DNA of 45,142 nucleotides from Dimargaris cristalligena. Its lineage: Eukaryota. Positions 1,388 through 43,305 of the stretch are shown one piece after another; position 1 is the stretch's first letter, and every line of letters begins with the position of its first letter. Position numbers and translations under genes: made by a program. The stretch spans positions 1-45,142 of the forward strand of contig ML002305.1 in the NCBI GenBank assembly GCA_003614675.1, read 5' to 3'. The notes under the pieces were generated by a model that did no database searches, was not told where the DNA came from, and saw only the letters and a program-made list of their open reading frames with translations.

Positions 1388-3094
1388 AACTGGAACCAGA
1401 CAAGTCGCATTAGAACCTTTCTAATTATCAATCGGTGGGGTGCGGTGAATGACGTATCGGCTATAGCCAAATTTGTCTAGCGTACATTCAATACCGCACT
1501 GTAACCGGCCCTCACCGACGATACCATAGACTTGATCCAAAACACCCCACTAGCCAGCCCCGTCTGCTCCAGTTACCCAAATGGGCTGTGCTACTTAGCG
1601 GACACTGTTTATTAAAGGTTAGCTCTAATCCATCACCCTGGTCCGTTAGTCTAGCCGCTGGGTTCGGTGGCGGAATATTTAGTCAAGCGGGGCGATTCTC
1701 CACCACCATGTCTAGGCCTGTGCCCCCCCCCGGCTGACCTACCGGTGCTACCGGAGGGATTACACTGGGGTTTGCTGTAAAAGCAGTATTGCTGCTCCCT
1801 AAAATAAAAGAATGGAGATTCTGAAACATGTTAACCTGGTGCCGATGGGTTGCTAAAGAGGAAGCACTTGAAGGAAACTACCGGTCCTGGCCCGACCGAT
1901 GGGTCCGGCAGTAAACGTACTGGCCCAAATAGTCCACCCCACATAAAAAAAGATGTAGGACGACATCAGGTTCCACCGAAGAATGGGGGTAGTGTGAACT
2001 CCACAACGGATGTAACCATTGCAGCCGAATGCGATACATCGCCCTCCCCTTTAAGAAGAGTAGGTAAAAGTGGCGTCAACTGTCACTGACGCATACGGTT
2101 TCCGTATCCTCCTAACCCATAGTGTATAGTAGATGAGACCGTTTGGAGCGAGTCCGATTTACGGCCTCGAAGCCCGAGTGGCGAATATTATGATTACTAG
2201 TCAGTGGGAGTGACCGTAGAACGAACCGCTTATTATAATACTGCACTTGCGTTCACATTGTAGCTAGTTTGTTTTCTTCGGTCTATAAACGCCACAGCCA
2301 ATTCTATATTGCTATCCCCGGTTTACCTATAACAGTCTTTAAAAACTGACACTATCGGTATACACAGTAATAACAACACCATGTTGGTATTGGGCTGCCA
2401 ACGGACGCTAGGCGTGGAGGAACCATTATGCGATCCGAAGGCAGCTTTACATCAACGTGTGCGACCAAGTTGACTGTACTACCCAGCTGGTTTCGATGGA
2501 AATGGACATAATAGAAATACATCACCCTATGTCTAAGCGCCGAGTCGGGCTGGTTTGGTAATAAATTGGTAGGACACGAATACCGAAAGCGAACTCCTTA
2601 CGACTTCTAGTCTAGCTAAAACACCCTTTGGACCGAATGGCCAGTTGAGGTGGTAATGACCATAAACTTGCTTAAGGGGGTTTGGCCGGGAGCCAGTCAC
2701 TCACTGAGGGCTGCCCGTTTTCCGCAATTGGGTTTATAGTGGGTGTGCTACCGAGCCCCACAGTGCCGGCGGGCAGCGGGGAGTCAATGATGTCGGGAGA
2801 GGGGCCTGGTGGACTAGGCCATTCATTTGTCGGGCCTTGCTAGTCTCCAACCAATTCTTCATGCCAATCAATACTCTTGCGCTTACAGCGAGTTAGGCCA
2901 AAGGTATATATACCCCCGCGGCTCGTCGCTTCATTGAAACTTCATACTATCCTCCTACCCACCGTTCACTACATAACCTCTACGAGTCTACCGCTTTGGA
3001 ATATCATCCCTTGGGTTCGTCTAAGTTCAAGTTCAACTTCAGCTTCCCAACTATCCCACGCCCTTCCCCTCCCTCTCCTGCCGTTTAAATAACC

Positions 3095-3865
3095 ATGCGT
3101 TTCCCATCGACTTTCAGCCTGGCGTTCGTCTTGGGTGTGTCGGTTGCCGTAGCTGCGCCGAACACCGACCCCACCGGCATCTCCAAAACCCGCCTGGAAT
3201 GCCAACGGTTCCCCGGTGGGAAACTTCCGAGCTCGGTGCGGAGCGCCAAGGTCCACAGTCCCCTCCACATGTTCCAGATGGCCGTTTGCCGGGACCGATC
3301 CCCCGAGGTAAAAAAATTCATTGACCGCCTGCTGGCGAACCTCGACTACGCTGATTTCTACGATTTCACGCCCGTACCCCGCCCGCCCCAGGGCCCGTTC
3401 GCCGAATTTACCAAGGTACGCGAGATCAACGCGGCGAATACCCCCGCCCGCATCGGGGACCTGCTCCACCGCAGTGACGAGGAACTGCTCGTTAAATACC
3501 CGCTCCTCTACGCCGTCAAACACGACCACGATTACGTCCCGTTGGCCCTGCACGCCCAGCTTAAGGACAGCCAGAGTGAGCCGAATAACCACTATCTCAC
3601 CAGCGTGGCCCTGGCCAAATTGGTGACGCAAATGGGTTACGATGCCGCGGTGGAATATGGTAAATATGAAGCCCAGGCGCATATGGAAGAAGTTGGGCTG
3701 AAGACCTTTAATTTGAAGGCCGGCGAGTACTCCCCGTACTTCCCGGCGGTGTTCAGATCGATCACCAACCCCAAGGTGATTGAGCAAGAGAAGAAGGCCC
3801 GGACTGAATGGGAACTTCACCAGACCCAGCCGGCCTCCCGAAGCTACGCCATGAAGGCTTATTAG
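3095..3865 (+). CDS. Orphan secreted protein, 256 aa, intronless
   Basis: ATG in an ACCATG context, a hydrophobic N-terminal signal-peptide-like segment (MRFPSTFSLAFVLGVSVAVAA/P), GC3-rich codon usage, a TATATATA run near 2905-2912 and an AT-rich 3' flank. I recognise no family. Confidence 0.8.
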   Translation: MRFPSTFSLAFVLGVSVAVAAPNTDPTGISKTRLECQRFPGGKLPSSVRSAKVHSPLHMFQMAVCRDRSPEVKKFIDRLLANLDYADFYDFTPVPRPPQGPFAEFTKVREINAANTPARIGDLLHRSDEELLVKYPLLYAVKHDHDYVPLALHAQLKDSQSEPNNHYLTSVALAKLVTQMGYDAAVEYGKYEAQAHMEEVGLKTFNLKAGEYSPYFPAVFRSITNPKVIEQEKKARTEWELHQTQPASRSYAMKAY

Positions 3866-20955: not shown

Positions 20956-21226
20956 AGGCCAAGCCTTCCCTCCCTCCAACTCTCATCATCATCACCACCA
21001 CCACCACTAAGCACTAGCCTTACCATCACCACTTCTACTACCTTTGGCCATCTTTTTCGACTCCGCCTTTCTACTTTACTTGTCCTCTCTGACTTTCTAC
21101 TGCTCGCTACTCTCTCATACAGACCTTTCCCCCGCCCTATTCACTGCTACTAGCCGCCTGTGTGCACTTAAAATCTTGACACCCACACTACTCTCCACTC
21201 ACTACTACCTTAAATCAACCATACCA

Positions 21227-22204
21227 ATGGATTCTTTTACTATGTCTCCGGTCGAACTGACCTACAACGATGTGAGCGACGTCGAGCCTATTACCTATCT
21301 GCCGCAAACCGCAATGGATTTCGACCCCGCCTATTTCCAGCAGTTCCTTGGAGGTGCCTTCCTGCCCTACCTATGCTCCCAGCAACCCATCACCAGCGAG
21401 GATGATATGCTAAAAGCCGTCGCTGCGATTGAAGTTCCCGCTGTCCTGGCGGGAGTCCTCAATACCCCTCCCCTATCCCCCCGCCAAGTCCCCCAGGCCC
21501 ATAGCAGCAGCCCCTCGGCCGCCACCCCCACGTCCACCGCGGTGTCATCGTCATCGGCCCCTTCATCGCCCAGCGCCGCCCCGGTGAAGCGCCCTACCCG
21601 CGTCCGCTCGCGGTCATCCCCCGGCCACATCCCCCGACCCCGCAACGCCTTCATTATCTACCGCCAGGAGAAGCACCGCGAACTGGTGGCCGGTTCGACG
21701 GGCCCCAGTATTCCTAACAAGGAAATATCCAAAATCATCGGCAAGATGTGGCGGGAAGAACCTAAGCTGGTCAAGGATGAGTACCACCGCCGGGCCGAGG
21801 AGGAGAAGACCACCCATGCCACCACCTACCCTGACTACAAGTACAGCCCCCGCAAGTCCATCAAGAACCCGAAGCGACTGCGCCTGGCCGGGGAGTCCAC
21901 CCACCACCACCATTCTACTGCCGCCACGTCCTCCCCCAATGCCTCGCACTCCAACACCTTGACCCATACTACCCCCACCATGAACTGCGTCGACCTGTCG
22001 ACGGCCCACCTGGACCACATCACTCCCCCGCCCCTTATGGCGCCCCTCTCCGCCTACGACTTCAACATGTTTCCCGCCTTCTCGCCCTTTGCCGCCGCTA
22101 ACATGGAACTCCTGACACCTGAGTTCGACCAGTCGACTTTTGCTGCGGCTGCGGCCGGTTTCAACTTGGAATACTTCCAAGCCATGTACCAACCACCCAA
22201 CTAA
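21227..22204 (+). CDS. Sequence-specific HMG-box transcription factor (MATA_HMG / Rox1-Rfg1-like class), 325 aa
   Basis: HMG box HIPRPRNAFIIYRQEKH...IPNKEISKIIGKMWREE...AEEEK...YPDYKYSPRK with a basic tail, flanked by Ser/Pro-rich regions and acidic/aromatic termini. The first in-frame ATG is at 21227; the ORF-track start at 21044 is TTG. Confidence 0.93.
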   Translation: MDSFTMSPVELTYNDVSDVEPITYLPQTAMDFDPAYFQQFLGGAFLPYLCSQQPITSEDDMLKAVAAIEVPAVLAGVLNTPPLSPRQVPQAHSSSPSAATPTSTAVSSSSAPSSPSAAPVKRPTRVRSRSSPGHIPRPRNAFIIYRQEKHRELVAGSTGPSIPNKEISKIIGKMWREEPKLVKDEYHRRAEEEKTTHATTYPDYKYSPRKSIKNPKRLRLAGESTHHHHSTAATSSPNASHSNTLTHTTPTMNCVDLSTAHLDHITPPPLMAPLSAYDFNMFPAFSPFAAANMELLTPEFDQSTFAAAAAGFNLEYFQAMYQPPN

Positions 22205-27727: not shown

Positions 27728-28439
27728 ATTGAAATGCCGCCTAAAATCAGGTATGTTTGAGACAGACCCCCCATGTAAACTTAGTTTCGGCATAACCAAT
27801 ACAGCCTGGCCATGGTTCCCTTTTTCCAACATAGTTGGTTTTCTCCCATCTGGTACATTATTGATTAAACAGGCAGGATTGATTACATTCAAGGCTCTTC
27901 GCCCACTGACACAGTAGCTGGAAGTTGGGGGGGTTTTTTTTATTAAAAAAAGGGCAGGTGGGGCCAACTCCAGTGTCAGCATGGCGGGTACCAAGCTCTT
28001 CAGATATCCGAGGCGGCTCGGCTTAAGCTGCCGATTTTACTGGTGTCCCTGTGCTTGTGGCTCTGATTTTGGGGGGTCTAATTTAAACCACGTGACTATA
28101 GTTTAAAGTCGGCTGATTATTAAGGGAGGCGGTGGCACTGGGTTGTTTCATATGCGATAGAATGGGAAATAAAAGTGCCATCAGTGAAAATAAACGGGGG
28201 GTTTTCCCGCAGGTATAGGATTTATGGGGGTTTTATTCTCTACGGCTGTCCCAGTTTTTTTTCCAGTTTTTAATTTTGCGGGCCCACAGTTGCGCCATAA
28301 TGGTAGCCTGATATTCTCTCTCTATTAAAGAGCAGCGTCAACCGCCGTCATTTTGTTCCTCCTCTTTCCCGTCGACTGTTGGCATACTTCCCCTTCTTTC
28401 TGACCCTTGTCATTTGGAACATCCCCCCCGACTATCACC

Positions 28440-29999
28440 ATGTCTTCGTAAGTATTTCCTCCTACTCGGCCTCCTACTTGTCCGCTTGAGATTCCCTTGG
28501 AGTCGCGATTGGCTCTTTCCGCCGTTCACCGTACCCCCAACGGATCTTGGTGTTAACCAGTTTATCGCTCCCTCCTTATACGATTGGTTCCATATGTGTG
28601 TTCCGTGGTTGACCCGATTTTCCCTCTGTTAGTTAAACCGGATCTTGCAGCGGATCTCTTGTTCGAAAGGATCCCTTTCCCCCAACCCAAGGGGTGTAAG
28701 GCGGGCACTACAGAGCCTTCGTTCAGCCACGGCCACTGGCCGTCGATAAAAACTAAGTAGCCAGGTTCGCTTAGCGAATACTGACAACTCCTCTCCAGTT
28801 CGGTGACTCCCAGATAACCTGGCCAGTGGTAGTGTAGTATTTTACCCTACTGGTTTGTTCTATCTGTACTCGCGGTCACTTTGCTGGTGTGGGAGCTTAA
28901 TTTTTAGTCCATGCTGGGTCTCTTGTATTAATTCTTTTATGTGCCCTTCGCAATCATGTGCTCGTCGCATCGTTCACCCCTGCTACTTTCGTCCCCCCTC
29001 TATCAGCGCCGTCCTTGCCCCCGAGACCTTCCTCAAGAAGCGTCGCGATACCGCTGAACAGAAGGCTGCCAAGCAGGCCCAGAAGAAGGAAATCTCCAAG
29101 GTATGCCCCTCTATCACTAGAGGGCTCTCAGAGTCCACCATTCTATATTCCTATCGTGTACTTGTAGCTGATGTTAACCCATACTAATTGATTCACTCGA
29201 AAGGGTGGTGATTGTAGTAAAAAAACTTCACCGTTTTTCGGATCTGATGCAAAATCCCCGATTGTCCTTGGGCCAATTTCCTAATTCAGTTTCTATCCAT
29301 CGTGCATGACCTGGTACCGTATCTAACCGTTTATTCAACTTGTTATTTACTCTGAATGTTCCACCGAGTTAGAAGCGTCGCGCCACCCGTGCCGTCATCT
29401 TCAAGCGTGCCGAGAAGTACCTGAACGAGTACAATGCCACCGAGAAGGCCATCGTTGCCCAGAAGCGCATTGCCCGTGACACCGGCTCCTTCTACGTGCC
29501 CGCTGAGACCAAGGTCCTCTTCGTGATCCGTATCAAGGGTATCATGAAGATCCCCCCCAAGCCCCGCAAGATCCTTCAGCTCCTCCGTCTGATCCAGATC
29601 AACAACGGTGTCTTCGTCAAGGTCAACCAGGCCACCAAGAACATGCTCACTCTGGTGTCCCCCTACGTCGCCTTCGGCGAGCCCAACCTGAAGTCCGTCC
29701 GCGAGCTCGTCTACAAGCGCGGTTTCGGTAAGATCAAGGGTCAGCGCATCCCCCTTAACGACAACTTGATCATCGAAGAGGCCCTCTCCAAGTTCGGCGT
29801 CATCTGCATGGAAGACATCATCCACGAGATCTTCACCTGCGGCCCCAACTTCAAGGAAGTCAACAACTTCCTGTGGCCCTTCAAGCTGTCCAACCCTACC
29901 GGTGGCTTCGCTACCAAGAAGACCCTGAACTTCGTCGAAGGTGGTGACTCCGGTAACCACGAGGACAAGATCAACAAGCTCATCCGCAAGATGAACTAA
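28440..29999 (+). CDS. RPL7: 60S ribosomal protein uL30 (L7), 242 aa; exons 28440-28447, 29007-29100, 29373-29999
   Basis: The spliced product reads [16 protein letters not shown]...[19 protein letters not shown]...FVIRIKGI...[14 protein letters not shown]...[12 protein letters not shown]...INKLIRKMN. Introns are GTAAGT..CAG (28448-29006) and GTATGC..TAG (29101-29372). Strong codon bias. Confidence 0.97.
28707..28838 (+). promoter_or_regulatory. Structured intronic element containing a cryptic branch point and 3' splice site (RPL7 intron 1)
   Basis: TACTGAC at 28779-28785, a pyrimidine tract and CAG at 28796-28798. Enclosing helices: 28760-28767/28816-28823, 28732-28741/28821-28830 and 28707-28712/28833-28838. 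Confidence 0.5.
29162..29252 (+). ncRNA. Intronic box C/D snoRNA, snR39/snR39B family (LSU rRNA Gm805-equivalent guide)
   Basis: Terminal stem TTGTA/TGCAA, box C-like TGATGT (29169-29174), internal hairpin CACTC-GAAA-GGGTG, C'-like GTGATT, guide TTCACCGTTTTTCGGAT (29227-29243) complementary to conserved LSU ACCCGAAAGAUGGUGAA, and box D CTGA (29244-29247). Confidence 0.8.
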
Positions 30000-31030: not shown

Positions 31031-33343
31031 TTATTGCGTATCAAACAGGGCCAGCCCACGGTGTTGGGCGACAAGAAGGGCAAAGGGAGAGGTGCCCCAG
31101 TCCGCCCGCTCGTACCACTGTATGGTCCGAATGCGGTAGGGGTCCACCTCCGCTTTTGATGCCATGTCTGAGTAATCGAATGGACTGGTTAGGACATTCA
31201 GAAGTTGGCCTGTGGTAGTGCTCCATAGGCGGATACAACGGTCGGAACCGGCGGCGGCCAAGACGGACCCCCCCGGATGGAGGGCTAGCCCCAGATCCCG
31301 GGAAAAATTTTGGTTGACGTGGCCCTTGAAGTACAGTACCGGGTGAGCGGGGTCCCGAGCTGAAGCGGGTGAAGTGTGGGGAACCAATGAAGTTTTCATA
31401 GTCGTAGTCGTCCGGGTTCCTGCTTTTCGAGATCGGGCCGGTTGGTAGGGCGTGCCCCCATAACCCCCCTCTCCACTCCTACTGGAGCGAGCCAGCGGAT
31501 TTGTCCGGTGGTAATCCATGTCCACCTGAATTACAGGGTCAGAGCCCTGGCTGCGGTACGGCACTACCGGATACACTACCGCGTCTGCTTCGGCGGATGC
31601 GTTTATTGCCGTCCCCCGCATGTATCGAATGTCCCATAGGGCATGGCTATCCCCGGTGGTGGCTGTCAATAGCTGCCATTCGTTGGTCTGGTCTAAATGA
31701 GTAATGGACGTTCCCGGCATATGGACCCCTGGTAGGAGGCCGTACTGGGGTAGGTGTCGTGAAAAGGGGACTCGGTAATCGAAGAGGCGGGCCCGGCCAT
31801 CCCGGCACCCGGCGTAAACTAGTGACGGGTGATAGCGGTCCCGCTGGATGGCAAAGACATCGCTCCCAGTTTGGATCACCAGGTTTAATGAGGCTTGAAT
31901 ACCCGTTGGAGGGTCTTCCGACATCCGCAGACCCAGACCCAGGCCCGTTCGGGCCGGCGATTCAATAGAGAGGGGTTCATCCGTCGGGCGGGTGGCTTCA
32001 TACATATTAAAGTTATAAATACCGTCCGAAGTGCCCAGGGACACATCGTGGGAGCCGACCGCCATTGTCCAGGCCGTGGTCCACTTTACTCCACGCTGGA
32101 GGATCAGGGGGCAGCTCTCACCCGCCCGAGCCTGCCGCACCATCTGGAGTTCGGGGGGTTGGTTGCGGGCACCCGGGAATAGGGCAAAGTAGTGGCCATG
32201 GTTGCGCCGTACCATTGTCGTTCCATGGGTGAATTGGTGGGTGTCGAGTAGATCAGCCTGGATCTGGCGGAGAGGCGGTGCCTTGGCTAGGGTACGGCGT
32301 CGGGTAAAGGCAGTGGTGGGGGTCAGGGTTAAAGTGTCCAGTTGGCCTTGTGTTGTGAGGAGTGATATTGCCTGATCCTGGGCAGGGCCGACTAGCATAT
32401 CCACGATACTTCCAGTCGCCAAATCGTACGGTATTCTTGGGGGGACGTGCGAACTATTCCCGTTATGGTCCCGACGATCCCCGCCGGGCTGTGCCAAATC
32501 CAGGATCATGCGGGGCTTCAGCGTGCGGACCGTCATTTCGACGTGTTGCAATTGGGTGGGTCTGCTGGGTGACCTAGACGACCCACCGCCACCACCACGA
32601 TTCACGGCTTCCTCCTTGTATGCGCGCCATCGATCCCGGCGACAGCAGCCCAAATCCCGGTTGGCCAAAAATTCGGGCCACGTTTGTTGGGCCCGCTCCA
32701 CCGCCTGCTGCTCGCTGATGTGGTGTTGCTGAAGTTCCTGTGTCCTTTGACGTTCTCGTATTTGATCTTCATGGTGCTGGCTGCCTGGATTGGATGCCCC
32801 GCCTTTTTCCACCTTAAAGTACCGGCGTTGGACGGGACAGTATGTGAACCCGGGAAGGATAGGCATGTTGGACGGCGGCGGGGTGGCCGCGGGCGAAATG
32901 CGGATAGATGCCGATGGCGAGGGGTCGTTGCTAGATGAAGTAGAGGTCCGGTGGTCCAGGCAAGGTCGTCGTGGGGTTGCTGTTACGGCTCCCGTCGCAG
33001 GGATTTTCCCTCGGCGGTTAGGATGGGAAGTGGGTGGTCGACAGGTCGATGTCGATGCCGATACTGATGTCGATGGTGTGGCAGAGGCGTTGGGTTGTCC
33101 CGTCCTGTCCTGACTACCCAGCAGCTGTTTCGCTCGACCGCCATCTCGTTTCCGGCGGGTGGTCACTTCCGAAGGAATTTGAAGTGAATGCCCGGTGTCT
33201 ACTTTAGTGGCCTGGGTTCGGAACGGGGGACCTTCGTTGGGGGTTGGTAATGTTGGGGAAGTGAGGCATTCTGAACTGACCTCAGGGCGGCGCTCCCGGT
33301 GTCTGCGCCTTTTGTTCTTTGGAGGTGGTGGCGAAGGGCCCAT
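31031..33343 (-). CDS. DCAF4/WDR21-like WD40-repeat protein (putative DDB1-CUL4 substrate receptor), ~770 aa, intronless
   Basis: Motif ILPGFTYCPVQRRYFKV resembles the N-terminal LPG(Y/F)YYD.EK.RYF motif of the DCAF4 family. WD repeats carry DxR motifs (GCRDGRARLFDYR, ALWDIR) and the segment FKGHVN...AAGSDRCIRLWS. First ATG at 33343. Confidence 0.8.
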   Translation of the reverse strand: MGPSPPPPKNKRRRHRERRPEVSSECLTSPTLPTPNEGPPFRTQATKVDTGHSLQIPSEVTTRRKRDGGRAKQLLGSQDRTGQPNASATPSTSVSASTSTCRPPTSHPNRRGKIPATGAVTATPRRPCLDHRTSTSSSNDPSPSASIRISPAATPPPSNMPILPGFTYCPVQRRYFKVEKGGASNPGSQHHEDQIRERQRTQELQQHHISEQQAVERAQQTWPEFLANRDLGCCRRDRWRAYKEEAVNRGGGGGSSRSPSRPTQLQHVEMTVRTLKPRMILDLAQPGGDRRDHNGNSSHVPPRIPYDLATGSIVDMLVGPAQDQAISLLTTQGQLDTLTLTPTTAFTRRRTLAKAPPLRQIQADLLDTHQFTHGTTMVRRNHGHYFALFPGARNQPPELQMVRQARAGESCPLILQRGVKWTTAWTMAVGSHDVSLGTSDGIYNFNMYEATRPTDEPLSIESPARTGLGLGLRMSEDPPTGIQASLNLVIQTGSDVFAIQRDRYHPSLVYAGCRDGRARLFDYRVPFSRHLPQYGLLPGVHMPGTSITHLDQTNEWQLLTATTGDSHALWDIRYMRGTAINASAEADAVVYPVVPYRSQGSDPVIQVDMDYHRTNPLARSSRSGEGGYGGTPYQPARSRKAGTRTTTTMKTSLVPHTSPASARDPAHPVLYFKGHVNQNFSRDLGLALHPGGSVLAAAGSDRCIRLWSTTTGQLLNVLTSPFDYSDMASKAEVDPYRIRTIQWYERADWGTSPFALLVAQHRGLALFDTQ

Positions 33344-33903
33344 ATTCAAATAAAAATGCGCTCTTATAACCTTGGGTGTATACAGAGAGAAACTAAAGGG
33401 AATAAGCGATTCATTTCAACTGAACGAGCCATACATTAGTAGGAAGAGCAAAAACGCATATTCAGTGGCAGTAATAGCCGACTATGGGATATCGGTGTAG
33501 ATATTGAAGGACTTGATTAAAAGGTACCCAGCTATAAAGCTCATTTCAAAGCGATTTCATAAAAAAAATATTAGAGAATTGTATATTGATGTGGTATGGT
33601 TTAACGGCTTCCTTTGAATGCCAAATAGAGGAGACGCTCGGAATCAGCTTAGCCACTACTCCTCTCATACTTAGTGCTCATTGGTACGCGAATTAGCCTA
33701 CTCGTTTATTTCCAACCCTCCAACTATACCTCTCCTCCGCCCTTGTTCTTCCACTCGAAATACCGCTGCCCAAGCTGCCTTGTACTATTCCATCCCCGAG
33801 AATCGGAATTAACGCGTGAATCAGCGCCCCGTTCTCGTTCGCTCCCACCACCCTATCTCTCCCATCGCCACTCGTCTCCGATACCGGAGGCGAACCGCCC
33901 ACC

Positions 33904-36900
33904 ATGTCCCTCTATCCGGTTTACCAGGAGCTCATTCCCCCGACGGCCACCTACCATTGCGCGGCGGGCCACTTTACCGGACGCAATGACACCAATCTCA
34001 TCCTCGTGCGCGGCAATGTCCTGGAGGTCTATTTGGTAATCATGCGGGAAATGGACCCGTCCACGTCCGAAGCGAACCGGGTCCACCCCACCTCCACCTT
34101 CGCCTATACCTACCAGACCCAGGCTTTCGACCTGGATGCGGATCAGGCCCTGGACTTCAGTAACCCGGACAAGGATTCCTCCGAGATCCGGACCCTACAG
34201 GCCTTTTCCCAAACCGGTACCCCGCGCCTCCAACTAGTATTAAAGGCCCCGCTGCAGGGCCAGGTCCAATCCCTAACGCTCGTCCAGACGTCAGCCAGCG
34301 AGGCCCATGGCCGTTCTTACCTATTACTGGCTTTAGCCGAAGCCAAAATGGCCCTGCTGGAATATTCGCCAACCGGCCACTGCTTCGTTACCGTGTCGAT
34401 TCATTACTACGAATGGGAGGAATTTCGGACCGAGTCCCTGCAGGAGCCGTGGCCCCCCACCGTGATTACCGACCCCAATGGCCGGTGCGCCATACTCCAG
34501 GTGTACCGCGATCGGATCGCCGTGCTGCCCTTTCGGCAGGCCGAAAATGCGGACCTGGCGCTGGGCCCCACCTCGATGGCCGCCGATCTAAACCGCAAAC
34601 GTCCCCTACCCATGACGGGGTCGGTTCCCCCGGCCACCAGCTGGCCCTATTCGCCCAGTTTTATGCTCGATTTAGAACAGCTGGACCAGCGGGTGGCCCA
34701 AGTCCTAGACATCGTTTTTCTACACGGCTACTACGTCCCCACCCTCGCCATCCTGTACGAGGCCCCTGAAACGACCTGGACTGGTAACCTTAAAAACCAG
34801 CGGGATACTTGTTCCGTCATTGTACTCTCACTGGACCTGATGCAGAAGGGCGCGTCGGTCATTTACCACAAAACCGGACTGCCCTACGATTGTTTTAAAA
34901 TTGTGCCCGTCCCTATTCCAACGGGCGGTCTAATGGTAGTAGCCGCCAACGCGCTGATTCATTTAAGCCAGGGTTCGGCCGGCGTTGGAGTGGCCGTGAA
35001 TTCCATGGAGGCTATGTCATGCTACACCGCCTTCCCACTTAATCGGGTCCATATTGACCAACCGGGTAGTACCGCCGATGACTCCACCTCCGACCCTATA
35101 CAGCTCCGACTCGAGTGCAGTCAGTCCGTTTTTCTGGACCACGAAACTATGCTAATGTCCTTGGCGTCGGGGCAGCTCCTTCTTGTCCGGTGTCTTAGTC
35201 ACGGTCGGAGTGTATCTAATCTCAAACTCGCACTGATTGGCGAGAGTGTTACTCCGTCCTGCGTTAGCTTAGTGTCCCCGGACCTTCTCTTTTTGGGATC
35301 CGCTATGGGTGATTCACAGCTTATTCGGTTCCAAATTCCACCGGTGGGCTCGGCTACCCGGGTCGTTTACGACATTGAGCCCGTCCGACCGCGAACCACC
35401 TCCCTTCTTCCCCCCACTAGCCTCTCTGATTCGGCTACCGAGTCAGCCGGGGACTCCAAGCCCGTCTCCGGCATGGCAACCAACCCCTCCGCTGGTGAAT
35501 CGCTGCCTCCGGTGGAGGACGAGGACGACTGGGACGAGGAATTATACGGACCCATGCCAGCCGGTAAATCAACCGCTGCCCCTTTTGCGGCGGGCCAATC
35601 CGCAACGGGGCCGAGCGCGAGGTCTACTTCCAATCAGCCTAAATGGTTTTCCTACTACCGGTTTAATGTTAGCGATTCCGTACTATGCCTAGCCCCGATG
35701 TCGTGTGCCACCCTTGGTTTGACCCCCGCCGATGTCGGGAATGCTTCGGCCACCGACAGCGATACCGCCGAACCGAGCAATGGGCCCGCCCGCTTCGTGG
35801 CCGGCTCAGGCTATGGAGCAGCCAGCTCGCTATCGATCCTCCAGCGCCATATCCAACCCGATGTTTTGACCTCGTTCCATTTACCGGGCTTTAAGTACAT
35901 CTGGTCCCTCCAAATGCAAGATCAACAGAGCGGATCATCCTGGGGCCTCCCCAACAGCTACGAGCCCGATTCGGACACGGCCTTTACCAAGTATTTGGTT
36001 CTGTCGAAACCGGGGGCTACGCTCGTCCTCGAGTCCAGCGATGAACTTCAGCAGGTGGAGGACACGGGGTTTGCCGAAACCGCTCTAACGGTGGGAGTGG
36101 CCGAATGGGCCAACCATCGCCAAATTGTGCAAGTTACCGAGGACGCCGTTTATCTTCTTAATCATCAGGTCCAGCGAATCCAGTCCCTGACCATCGATGA
36201 GTACACCAACTCCACGACCATACGAATTGTGGACTGCCACATCGTTGATCCTTTTGTACTGTTGGTCTTGACCGACGGCTCGGTGGCCCTGGTAACTAGA
36301 GTCAATTCGGCCCAGCCGCAACTCCACTTTGTCCGGATCCCCACTCATCTCAATCGATCCGCCATTGTATCCGCTTGTCTTTTTGATGATATCTACGGTT
36401 GCTTTAAACCCCTGTCCTCAGTATTAGATGTTGATTTGACTCTGGCCGACCCACTGGCCCCTGATGACTCTCCGAGTGACGCCACGAGTACCACTAATGT
36501 AGCAGTTGAGGCCACGGCTACCCTCGAAATTGACCTCCCCCCACCGCGGCCGGTTGCCTCTATGGATATAGACGATGACGAGCAGGTAGACTTTGATGAT
36601 GCCGACGCCCTGGGCGATGGGCCTCCATCGGCCAGCCTACGCTCTGGCGGCTCCACCAGGCACCATGTCGACGAAGACAACGTCAGTAATCTTCAGCAAG
36701 CCCTATCGGCCGCCAATACGGCACCCCAATGGTGCTGCGTATTTCGCCTCAATGGTGCCCTTGAAATCTACGCCTTGCCTAAGTACCAATTAGTGTACGT
36801 AGCCCCCTATTTCGACCAGCTTCCAGGCCTACTCACTGACAGTCTAGTGGCGCAGTGGCAAACATCCCGGCCGCCAATCACTCTACCGCAAACGAACCCC

Positions 36901-39026
36901 ATTTCCCTAGCCGACATCACCCACCTCCGTCTCCACGCCTTTGGGCCCGCACTCGACGACGTCTACCTCTGTGCCGTTCGGCGGTCGGGGGAGGTGGCGC
37001 TCTACCGTGCTTTCCCCTTTGATCCGAGTACACCGGATCCACTGGAGGTGGCGCCCTGTTTAAATGTGCCGCCACCTCCTGTTGAGGCCACCCCCCCCCC
37101 AAGGCCGTGGCTCCCGTCGATAAAGGTCAATTGAAAAATCGGCTAGCCCTCCGACTCACCAAATGCCCGCTATCGACGCTTGTCCTACCCTCCTCTGCGG
37201 AAAATCCAGCGCCGACCGGCCCGGTACCGAACCCCATTACCACTTTCCGGAATATCCAAGGTCACCATGGCTTCCTCATCCGGGGACCTCAGCCCCAGTG
37301 TGCCTTCATTACCCCTTTTAGTCTCTACCCCCAGGTCCATCCCCTGCGCCTACCGCCGAGTTATTTGGCTGAGGTGGAGACTGAAGTAGAGGGCGACGAC
37401 TTAACGGCCGCGAAAACCGCCCCCAAACCCACACTACCGACATCAGCCAGCGGCCTAACCGGATTCTGCGAGTTCCACAGTTCCCAAGTGGACCGAGGGT
37501 TTATTGCCCTGGATGACCAAAGTCGCCTCCATATTGGCCAACTAGACCGGGATGTCATTTACGATTTCGACTGGCCTCTCCGCCGGATTGGCCTAGGTCG
37601 GACGATTCACTATTTGGCCTATCACCCGACGGTGGGGGCCTTTTGCGTAGTGACTTCCACCCCGCAGCCGTTTACCCTGCCCAGCAAGGACGAAGAGGAG
37701 GAAGCCAAGCTCGAACAGGCCATCCACGCGGCGAACCAAAAAATGAATATCGAACTCCCCCCGTCGCCCCCGCGGTCGGGCCGACCGGTCAGTCCGGAGC
37801 CCAACCCGACCGACCAGGGCAAGATGGACCTCAAACCATTGGTACCGCACTTCCAAATCGACCTTATTTCCCCCGAAGCCTGGGAAATCATCGATACGTA
37901 CGTGCTAGAACCGGACCACCACGTCACGGACTTCAAGTGCCTGAGTCTGACCAGTCGCCAAACGGTAACCGGGCGCAAATTCTACATGGCGGCCAGTACC
38001 TCTTTAGTCAACGGGGAGGACCGGGCCATGCGGGGCCATGCCCTGCTATTTGATATTATCGAAGTCGTGCCTGAACCCGGCCGGCCCCTCACCAAATATA
38101 AGCTAAAGTTGGTCTGCGAGGATGAAGTGGGTGGGCCCGTCTCGGCGCTCTGTGCGGTGAATGGCCATCTCATCGTGCCCACTGGTCCCCGGGTGTTTGC
38201 CAAGAATTTCCGTGACGGGATCAAACTGGAAGGGGTCGCGTTTGTGGACCTTCTGCTGTACGTCACCAGCGCCACCGTCCTCAAGAACTTTATCCTCATG
38301 GGGGACACGAGCAAGGGCGCCGCTCTGGTGGGCTTTCAGGACGAACCGGCTAACCTCGTCATGCTAGGCCGGGACTATTTGCCCATGGATGTGACCTGTG
38401 GTGAATTCATCGTCGATGATCGGTCCACCTACTTCCTCGTGGCGGACGACCGGTGTAATATTTTCTGTCTGAGTTACTCGCCGCGCCATGTCCAGTCTTT
38501 CTCCGGTCAGAAACTGCTCCGACGGGCCGACTTCCATCTCGGTTGCCGAGTCACCTGCATGATGCGGCTACCTAGTCAGTCTGCTCTGCGTCTCCGGCCG
38601 GACCATCATCCCGCCCACAACCTTTCTAATAATGCCCGCCACCACTCTAACCGCCCCCCGCCGGGACCCCAACACCCCGTAACCCAGAAACAACTATGTT
38701 TATGCGGTACCGACTCGGGAGCGGTATTTGCGGTATCGTCCGTCCCCGAAAAAACGTTTAAACGACTCCAGCGTCTCTATCTCTACCTTACCAACGGCAT
38801 CCCCCATGTCGCTGGGCTTAACCCACGCGCGTTCCGGCTGCTTCCCGTTGGTCAGCGATTGACTAGCAATCCGGCCAAGAACTTCGTGGACCTGTCCTTG
38901 ATCAACCAGTACCTCGATCCTTTACCCATATCCAAGCAACGCGAATTTACCCACCGGATCGGGTCAACCCTGGACCGAGTAGCAGTGGATGTTACAATTA
39001 TACCCCAGGAAATCGGCTACTTCTAA
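33904..39026 (+). CDS. CFT1: Cleavage and polyadenylation specificity factor subunit 1 (CPSF160/Cft1), ~1700 aa; frameshifted in this sequence at C10 (37091-37100)
   Basis: N-terminal part: PPT..H..GHFT..NLIL..N.LEVY, TVSIHYYE, DP.GRCA, FLHGYYVPTLAILYE, LPYDC, LFLGS.MGDS. C-terminal CPSF_A region: GEDR..RG, IIEVVPEPGRP, GPVSAL, AFVD, KNFILMGD, SFSGQKLLRRADFHLG, HVAGLNPRAFR. Two overlapping ORFs, 33904-37134 and 37107-39026. Confidence 0.93.
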
Positions 39027-41172: not shown

Positions 41173-43305
41173 ATGGTCGCCAACGCCGAGCAGTTCGCCT
41201 TCCAGGCTGAAATCAGCCAGCTGATGAGCCTGATCATCAACACCTTCTACTCCAACAAGGAAATCTTCTTGCGCGAATTGGTTTCCAACTCGTCCGACGC
41301 CCTCGACAAAATCCGCTATGAATCCCTGACCGACCCCAGCAAGCTCGACTCCGGCAAGGAACTGTTTATCCGCATCACCCCCGACCGCGCCAACAACATC
41401 CTGACCATCCGCGACTCCGGTATCGGTATGACCAAGGCCGACCTGGTCAACAACCTGGGTACCATCGCCAAGTCCGGTACCAAGCAGTTCATGGAGGCCC
41501 TGTCCTCCGGCGCCGATATCTCCATGATTGGCCAGTTCGGTGTGGGTTTCTACTCCGCCTACCTGGTCGCCGATAAGGTCGAGGTCATCACCAAGCACAA
41601 CGACGACGAGCAGTACATCTGGGAGTCGGCCGCCGGTGGCTCCTTCACCATCACCCGGGACACCGTGAACCCGTCCCTGGGCCGCGGTACCGAGATGCGC
41701 CTCCACCTCAAGGAGGACCAGCTCGAGTACCTCGAGGAGAAGAAGATCAAGGAGATCATCAAGAAGCACTCCGAATTCATCGGCTACCCCATCCAGCTCG
41801 TGGTTGAGAAGGAGGTCGAGAAGGAGGTGTCCGACGACGAGGCCGAGACTGAGGCCAAGGAAGAGGAGGACAAGAGCGAGGACGCCGCCAAGATCGAGGA
41901 GGTCGAGGACGAGGAGGACGGTGCCAAGAAAGCCAAGAAGACCAAGAAGATCAAGGAGATGACCACCGAGACCGAGGAGCTCAACAAGACCCGGCCCATT
42001 TGGACCCGCAACCCCGACTCCATCTCCAGCGAGGACTACTCGTCGTTCTACAAGTCCCTGTCCAACGACTGGGAGGACCACCTGGCCGTCAAGCACTTCT
42101 CTGTCGAGGGTCAGCTCGAGTTCTGCGCCCTGCTCTTTATCCCCCGCCGCGCCCCCTTCGACATGTTCGAGACCAAGAAGAAGCGCAACAACATCAAGCT
42201 GTACGTGCGCCGCGTGTTCATCATGGACGACTGCGAGGAGATCATCCCCGAGTGGCTCAACTTCGTCAAGGGTGTCGTCGACTCCGAGGACCTGCCCCTG
42301 AACATTTCCCGTGAGACCCTGCAGCAGAACAAGATCCTCAAGGTCATCCGCAAGAACCTGATCAAAAAGTCCATCGAGCTCTTCGCCGAGATTGCCGAGG
42401 ACAAGGATAACTTCAACAAGTTCTACGAAAGCTTCAGCAAGAACATCAAGCTGGGTATCCACGAGGACAGCCAGAACCGCGCCAAGCTCGCCGAGTTCCT
42501 GCGCTACTTCTCGACCAAGTCCGGTGACGAGCCCACTTCCCTCAAGGACTACGTGACCCGCATGCCCGAGAAGCAGAAGAACATCTACTACATCACCGGC
42601 GAGTCCAAGCAGGTGGTCGAGAACTCCCCCTTCCTGGAGGTCCTCAAGAAGAAGGGCTTCGAAGTCCTGTACCTGGTCGACCCCATTGACGAGTACGCCG
42701 TCCAGCAACTCAAGGAGTACGATGGTAAGAAGCTCATGAGCGTCACCAAGGAGGGCCTCGAGCTCGAGGAGGACGACGAGGAGAAGAAGAAGCGCGAGGA
42801 GGAGGAGAAGTCCTTCGACGACCTGTGCAAGCAGATGAAGGAGATCCTCGGCGACCGCGTCGAAAAGGTCTGCGTGTCCAACCGGATTGCCGACTCCCCC
42901 TGCGTCCTGGTCACCGGCCAGTTCGGTTGGTCCGCCAACATGGAGCGCATCATGAAGGCCCAGGCCCTGCGCGACTCCTCCATGTCCTCCTACATGGCCT
43001 CCAAGAAGACTATGGAGCTCAACCCCGAACACCCCATTGTCCAGTCCCTCAAGGCCAAGCTCGATGCCGACAAGAACGACAAGGCCGTCAAGGACCTTAC
43101 CCTCCTGTTGTACGAGACTGCCCTGCTCACCTCCGGCTTCTCCCTGGATGACCCCTCGGCCTTCGCCAGCCGCATCCACCGCATGATCAAGCTGGGTCTG
43201 AGCATCGACGACATCCCCATGGATAGCGCCGCCGCCGCCTCGGCTGATGACGATACCCCCACTCTGGAGGACACTGAGGAGTCCAAGATGGAGGAGGTGG
43301 ACTAA
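41173..43305 (+). CDS. HSP90: Cytosolic Hsp90, 710 aa, intronless
   Basis: [52 protein letters not shown], a charged linker, [15 protein letters not shown] and C-terminal MEEVD. ATG at 41173 in a CCACCATGG context. Confidence 0.99.

Follow-up and report, generated by a model that had tools for sequence, protein, structure and literature searches.

A putative structure-masked decoy 3' splice site in the first intron of the RPL7 (uL30) gene of Dimargaris cristalligena

The long first intron of the RPL7 (uL30) gene of Dimargaris cristalligena carries, upstream of its productive acceptor, a branch-point-like heptamer (TACTGAC) followed by a pyrimidine spacer and a CAG, and the reading that we tentatively prefer, with a probability of about 0.4, is that this is a decoy acceptor masked by RNA structure whose leak would feed NMD. 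The heptamer, spacer and CAG would together form a cryptic 3' splice module, while the acceptor at 29006, preceded by a long pyrimidine tract and, as its branch candidate, only the weak TTCAC, is most likely the productive one. The decoy would probably be mostly silenced by its position in the 5' arm of a predicted hairpin, rather than by the competing helices A and B considered below, and the productive CAG would stay single-stranded while the decoy CAG is buried. Any leak to 28798 would yield an mRNA whose reading frame ends at codon 9 and which NMD would be expected to degrade; the size of that leak could be adjusted if the hairpin were melted or remodelled, by a purely putative regulator. 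Use of the site, decay of its product and any control of dosage are inferences.

The window, by which we mean the whole stretch of 45,142 nt that was analysed, comes from a fungus placed by taxonomy in the Kickxellomycota, Dimargaritales. The gene is RPL7/uL30 with a first intron of 559 nt, as a first-pass annotation had proposed, and a three-exon model starting at 28440 reproduces exactly the public protein P0001 (242 aa). Exon 3 (29373-29996) is 100% identical to this protein, which is entered as '60S ribosomal protein L7 [Dimargaris cristalligena]', and its next-best protein matches are from Dispira simplex (73%) and Dimargaris xerosporica (70%). The two public models disagree on the first exon: P0001 starts with MSS at 28440, whereas P0121 (245 aa) starts with MPPKIS at 27734 and crosses a 1257-nt intron to the same acceptor. 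The start at 28440 is favoured by the 8-nt first exon and the phase that it has in common with three yeast RPL7 loci, by yeast N-termini that line up with MSSAVLAPE, and by a TATA-like box and CT-rich leader upstream of 28440, as at the neighbouring HSP90 gene. Phase is identical for the first exons at 28440-47 and 27734-49, so the reading-frame argument for a premature stop is valid with either. That both independent models use acceptor 29006, and that the resulting N-terminus aligns with those of relatives, supports the assignment of roles to the two acceptors in the decoy reading. The features are collected in Table 1.

Table 1. Features of the RPL7 locus and of the surrounding window (positions in the window; RNA structures are predictions)
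Feature	Position	Strand	Remarks
Alternative RPL7 first exon, ATGCCGCCTAAAATCAG	27734-27749	+	followed by GTATGT; used by P0121
RPL7 exon 1, ATGTCTTC	28440-28447	+	8 nt; followed by 5' splice site GTAAGT
RPL7 intron 1	28448-29006	+	559 nt
Upstream hairpin domain (domain 1)	28598-28736	+	predicted; takes up ACTACAG and part of the 5' arm of helix B
Helix B, GCCACTGGCC/GGCCAGTGGT	28732-41/28821-30	+	5' arm 28732-28741; ensemble probability about 0
Helix A, GCCAGGTT/AACCTGGC	28760-67/28816-23	+	5' arm 28760-28767; ensemble probability about 0
Branch-point-like heptamer TACTGAC	28779-28785	+	branch A at 28784; sole CTRAY of intron 1
10-nt spacer AACTCCTCTC, then cryptic acceptor CAG	28786-28798	+	spacer 8/10 pyrimidines (80%); CAG at 28796-98
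112-nt imperfect hairpin (core of domain 2)	28786-28897	+	predicted; pairs CAG 28796, CAG 28811 and CAG 28824
In-frame TAA (codon 9)	28815-28817	+	reached when exon 1 joins 28799
3' arms of helices A (28816-23) and B (28821-30)	28816-28830	+	28821-29 pairs instead with 28847-55 in the ensemble
Productive 3' splice region	28967-29006	+	78% pyrimidine tract (28967-29003); TTCAC; CAG at 29004-06
RPL7 exon 2	29007-29100	+	P0001 model
RPL7 intron 2	29101-29372	+	272 nt; ATCTAAC 46 nt upstream of acceptor; candidate C/D snoRNA inside
RPL7 exon 3 including stop codon	29373-29999	+	P0001 model
Long-frame genes of the intron-poor window	3089-3862, 21011-22201, 31034-33415, 33820-39023, 41174-43302		

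The motifs of the internal module, their geometry and the premature stop can be read directly in intron 1. The heptamer, the spacer and the CAG lie exactly where the first-pass annotation had placed them, the G of the CAG being 14 nt past branch A28784. Joining exon 1 to 28799 gives the translation MSSSVTPR*, in agreement with the eight codons and stop proposed earlier, and the phase is the same from the alternative first exon at 27734; in this respect the site has the early stop of an AS-NMD poison site. The next CAG (28811-13) would as an acceptor likewise give an immediate stop, and these first two cryptic CAGs (28798, 28813) are the only poison ones. The exon-2 frame is open upstream of 29006 for 66 codons, from 28807, so that splicing to 28826 or 28907 would keep the frame and add Cys-rich insertions rather than stops. 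Micro-exon, nested-intron and recursive-splicing arrangements were considered and rejected: no frame-preserving GT occurs between 28798 and the TAA at 28815, and intron 1 has no second CTRAY. An origin as a repeat or mobile element was also rejected, with zero further copies within the 45,142-nt window.

The earlier statement that the productive acceptor has no comparably good branch motif is confirmed. A scan for CTRAY over the last 222 nt of intron 1, up to acceptor 29006, gave zero matches, and the only yTnAy within 60 nt of this acceptor is TTCAC, a weak candidate whose A at 28976 lies 30 nt before 29006. The contrast between a site without CTRAY but with a tract that is 78% pyrimidine and an internal site with a full heptamer is one of the supports of the decoy reading. 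A non-consensus branch point at the productive acceptor is also a trait of yeast RPL7B, and TTCAC fits it, with the proviso that the species consensus is not measurable from this window.

Folding predictions, which are fallible for an RNA of 559 nt, suggest how the internal site might be silenced. The hairpin at 28786-28897 has an MFE of -41.1 kcal/mol (z -3.46, with 1/200 shuffles as good), and in the ensemble of the full intron its stems have probabilities of 0.74-1.0; it begins 3 nt past TACTGAC and is retained when folding starts downstream of the branch motif. The predicted unpaired probability is 0.00 at the CAGs at 28796, 28811 and 28824, against 0.83 at the productive CAG (29004-06), and this pattern, with the z-score of the hairpin, speaks for the decoy reading. 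Two sets of results weaken it. A 112-nt window of equal stability occurs in 14/150 shuffled introns, so the hairpin is not significant once corrected for the choice of the best window, and the fold of the whole intron stands out little from shuffles (z -1.16; 14/100 as good). In addition, about 15% of the 3-nt windows of intron 1 are paired as fully as the cryptic CAG, and the TAGs at 28830, 28835 and 28905 are poorly masked (unpaired probability 0.34-0.59). Both the hairpin and the accessibility pattern are predictions only. Upstream, domain 1 (28598-28736) has stem probabilities of 0.95-1.0 and a z-score of -2.04 (6/200 shuffles as good) for a window picked post hoc. A search for a zipper stem between the region of the 5' splice site and that of the branch found only a 5-bp closing stem at 28467-71/28738-42, with a probability of 0.39-0.44.

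The first-pass annotation had proposed a different structure, in which helices A and B compete around the poison acceptor and free uL30 shifts the pre-mRNA to an NMD isoform. We give this switch a low probability. Its complementary segments are present and overlap at 28821-23 exactly as described, the sequences of an outer ACTACA/TGTAGT pair and of a TTCGC hairpin are also there, and helix B is part of the MFE structure of the isolated 146-nt segment. The folding check that had been suggested for it nevertheless turned against it, because the 146-nt region around the cryptic site folds no better than shuffles (z -0.32; 75/200 fold as well) and because helices A and B, like the outer pair and the TTCGC hairpin, have a probability of about 0 in the whole-intron ensemble. 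Forcing them on the whole intron costs +10.6 kcal/mol for helix A, +9.6 kcal/mol for helix B and +18.1 kcal/mol for helix B with the outer pair, and in growing-chain folds, with the chain stopped at each of ten points from 28800 to 29006, helices A, B and the outer pair never form. Helices this long are within reach of chance; of 500 shuffled introns, 31% contain a perfect helix of at least 8 bp within 110 nt and 11% a helix of at least 10 bp with at most one G-U. The predictions, fallible as they are at this length, therefore disfavour the A/B switch as a fold.

Yeast offers the switch some encouragement at the level of the family. S. cerevisiae RPL7B is autoregulated via intron 1, where, in the available text of Granas et al. 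2025 (PMC12311795), Rpl7 binds a conserved structure and splicing is repressed; the bound structure and a zipper-stem enhancer are in competition, and a weak branch point is required for the effect. The intron position is common to yeasts. Autoregulation of uL30 through RPL7 intron 1 is already known in yeast RPL7B, by a different mechanism, and control of the D. cristalligena intron by uL30 would be plausible by analogy. The gene resembles yeast RPL7B in belonging to the uL30 family, in the position of the intron (after an 8-nt first exon), in the length of the first intron and in the non-consensus branch point at the productive site, and alternative intron structures may be possible in both. 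Against the switch, what is inhibited in yeast is a splicing enhancer, and a poison acceptor plays no part: a three-stem structure is set against the zipper-stem enhancer, and the outcome is unspliced RNA. The RPL7B structure, first described by Hooks et al. 2016, is reported in the available part of that paper to be conserved in Saccharomycetaceae and Candida only (PMC4937481), and we detected no similarity to it in intron 1, by a test without power.

That test drew on a metagenome scan that gave 22 RPL7 loci with 46-68% protein identity, comprising yeasts, Pezizomycotina-like fungi and cDNA-like contigs. None of the 22 is a close relative; the closest has 68% protein identity, and none belongs to the Dimargaritales by identity. 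L003-L005 and L007 are yeast-like and amount to three distinct yeasts, as L003 and L004 are identical in sequence; L001, L002 and L010 are Pezizomycotina-like, L010 having coordinates and scores identical to those of L002. All these yeast-like and Pezizomycotina-like loci have long first introns (407-505 nt), and an 8-nt exon 1 with the same phase is found in L004, L005 and L007, so that the element in D. cristalligena lies in the first intron of a uL30 gene at a conserved position. L004 and L005 share conserved blocks that fit the published yeast structure, and a covariance model, R1, built from these two loci matched only its two training sequences among six sources; because it missed the third yeast, L007, it has no reach, and little can be concluded from its failure to match Dimargaris. 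When intron 1 of Dimargaris was aligned locally with five other RPL7 first introns, no alignment rose above shuffles (for the best, 6/100 were as good). As a separate observation, the related loci L001 (2233-2690) and L002 (2259-2709) have first introns of about 455 nt with long identical stretches and a stem of about 15 bp (alignment positions 42-58 to 428-442) that overlaps the branch motif TTCTAAC and resembles the zipper stem described for yeast RPL7A/B.

The strong rival to the decoy reading is chance. TACTGAC, CAG and all the helices could be accidents of a 559-nt intron, with no meaningful use and no function, an explanation that we hold to be unlikely but that carries considerable weight. 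In 2000 dinucleotide shuffles of intron 1, with the YAG placed 10-30 nt past the branch A, the strict module (TACTRAC and YAG) arose in only 2.4%, and TACTRAC alone in 5.3%; this rarity of a full heptamer with a well-placed CAG counts against accident and for a decoy. The loose module (CTRAC and YAG) arose in 34% and the loosest (CTRAY and YAG) in 59%, and these frequencies weaken the decoy reading. The module would therefore stand out only if splicing in this species relied on the extended heptamer, and the window has no other clear intron for reference. Accident is also favoured by helix lengths inside the range of shuffles, by the fold scores and best-window count given above, by intron 2, which has five CTRAY, including a TACTAAT, distant from its own acceptor, and by the yeast RPL7 intron of L007, which likewise has an internal ACTGAC followed by CCAG. 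On the other side, TACTGAC is the sole CTRAY of intron 1 while the productive site is without one, and, had a strong decoy been harmful in this essential and highly expressed gene, mutation should have removed it.

A quite unlikely possibility is that TACTGAC is instead the true branch point for 29006, with a constitutive downstream-stem arrangement in which structure spans the intervening 222 nt and hides the AGs. Intron-poor genomes tend to have strict splice signals; the window looks intron-poor, and TACTGAC is the only consensus branch motif in intron 1. The predicted hairpin just past the motif hides three CAGs, and a 7-bp stem at 28755-61/28982-88 (probability 0.65-0.97) would put the neighbourhood of the branch motif beside the final 18 nt of the intron. 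Of 88 yeast introns, 21 have documented downstream stems in the available text of PMC12350175, which also describes zipper and downstream stems as common in yeast introns. The geometry is less accommodating, since about 110 nt still remain before 29006 with the hairpin formed, the three TAGs stay partly exposed, and a 7-bp long-range stem is expected by chance. The first exposed acceptor would be TTTTTAG (28905-07), about 16 nt away, whose use would give an in-frame insertion of 33 residues that is missing from both public models and from the N-termini of relatives. An explanation unrelated to splice choice, that the structured region is a separate non-coding RNA hosted by the intron, such as a snoRNA, has next to no probability in our judgement. 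A C/D snoRNA occurs in RPL7 introns of most fungi according to the accessible part of PMC8476143, and the excerpt of Hooks et al. (PMC4937481) reports that the structured part of intron 1 of yeast RPL7B gives rise to a stable RNA; the conserved snoRNA position, however, is intron 2, the other intron (PMC8476143, as far as its available text goes). Intron 1 gave no Rfam match at E up to 10, nor did the whole window at the gathering score, and by eye there is neither a C box within reach of the single CTGA nor a hairpin-H-box-hairpin-ACA layout. A snoRNA in intron 1 was accordingly rejected.

Intron 2 itself contains a candidate C/D box snoRNA (29160-29255) at the position of the fungal snR39/snR59 family, with GCTGATG near 29169, CTGA at 29244-47 and a stretch resembling a guide, which can be aligned to the block that is invariant among the second introns of five other fungal RPL7 genes. 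A sequence model made from those five introns gave weak support, reaching E 0.4 at the candidate in a 1.2-kb search; over the whole window the same model found nothing, and Rfam gave no match to the candidate. Elsewhere in the window, a scan that joined open reading frames found no convincing intron besides RPL7 intron 2, and HSP90 (41174-43302) and the large neighbouring genes are intronless. The window looks intron-poor, with HSP90, HMG-box, WD40/DCAF4-like and RSE1/CPSF_A genes as long uninterrupted frames, and its 5-20 kb part is largely without a long high-GC3 frame. The RSE1/CPSF_A-type gene (33820-39023) shows a frame change at 37086-37131, with a C run at about 37092-37101; an intron there was rejected, as no splice signals lie near the run, and the change looks to be either a sequencing error in the homopolymer or a genuine frameshift.

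Structure-guided 3' splice site choice in yeast introns has reportedly been the subject of earlier work. The structure-masked decoy that we prefer would combine features of several known systems. The dependence on a weak branch point and intron structure described for RPL7B (PMC12311795, available text) and the non-productive sites that lead to NMD (PMC3983031, available text) are its precedents. In yeast, the latter source finds NMD-feeding alternative sites of this kind to be widespread; its available text includes RPL22B, with an NMD-coupled alternative 5' site, and contains 0 occurrences of RPL7. Other ribosomal protein genes with NMD-coupled non-productive sites are those for L10a (PMC4937301) and RPS9 (PMC3315480), again from the parts of these papers at hand. 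The Dimargaris site would share with RPL22B, L10a and RPS9 an intronic alternative site that leads to an early stop and makes it a candidate for dosage control of a ribosomal protein. It differs from RPL22B in being a 3' acceptor rather than a 5' site, and from all three in that those cases rest on junction reads, stabilisation in NMD mutants and conservation, whereas the Dimargaris site is a candidate. With yeast downstream stems it would share a hairpin just past the branch motif that buries AGs and leaves the used acceptor open, as predicted here. In yeast, each such stem sits with its two arms inside the interval from the branch point in use to the acceptor in use and leaves only a short effective distance (PMC12350175, available text), unlike in Dimargaris, where a long stretch with an exposed TAG would remain and the branch used is putative. 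Among the literature matches listed for Dimargaris cristalligena and intron, we found no paper on splicing in Dimargaris.

The solid outcomes of the analysis are a confirmed sequence anatomy, a corrected likely fold and a discrepancy between two public gene models. A far more ambitious conjecture, to which we attach only a slight probability, is that uL30 feedback via its own first intron is much older than the budding yeasts and would act in Dimargaris through a structure-gated poison acceptor, a strong internal branch and CAG being set against a productive site with a weak branch, so that excess pre-mRNA goes to NMD. Splicing feedback by uL30 has so far been shown only in budding yeasts. If the internal acceptor is truly used and gated, ribosomal-protein splicing feedback would extend to an early-diverging and little-studied fungal phylum, and a poison 3' acceptor would join the repertoire known for a uL30 gene.
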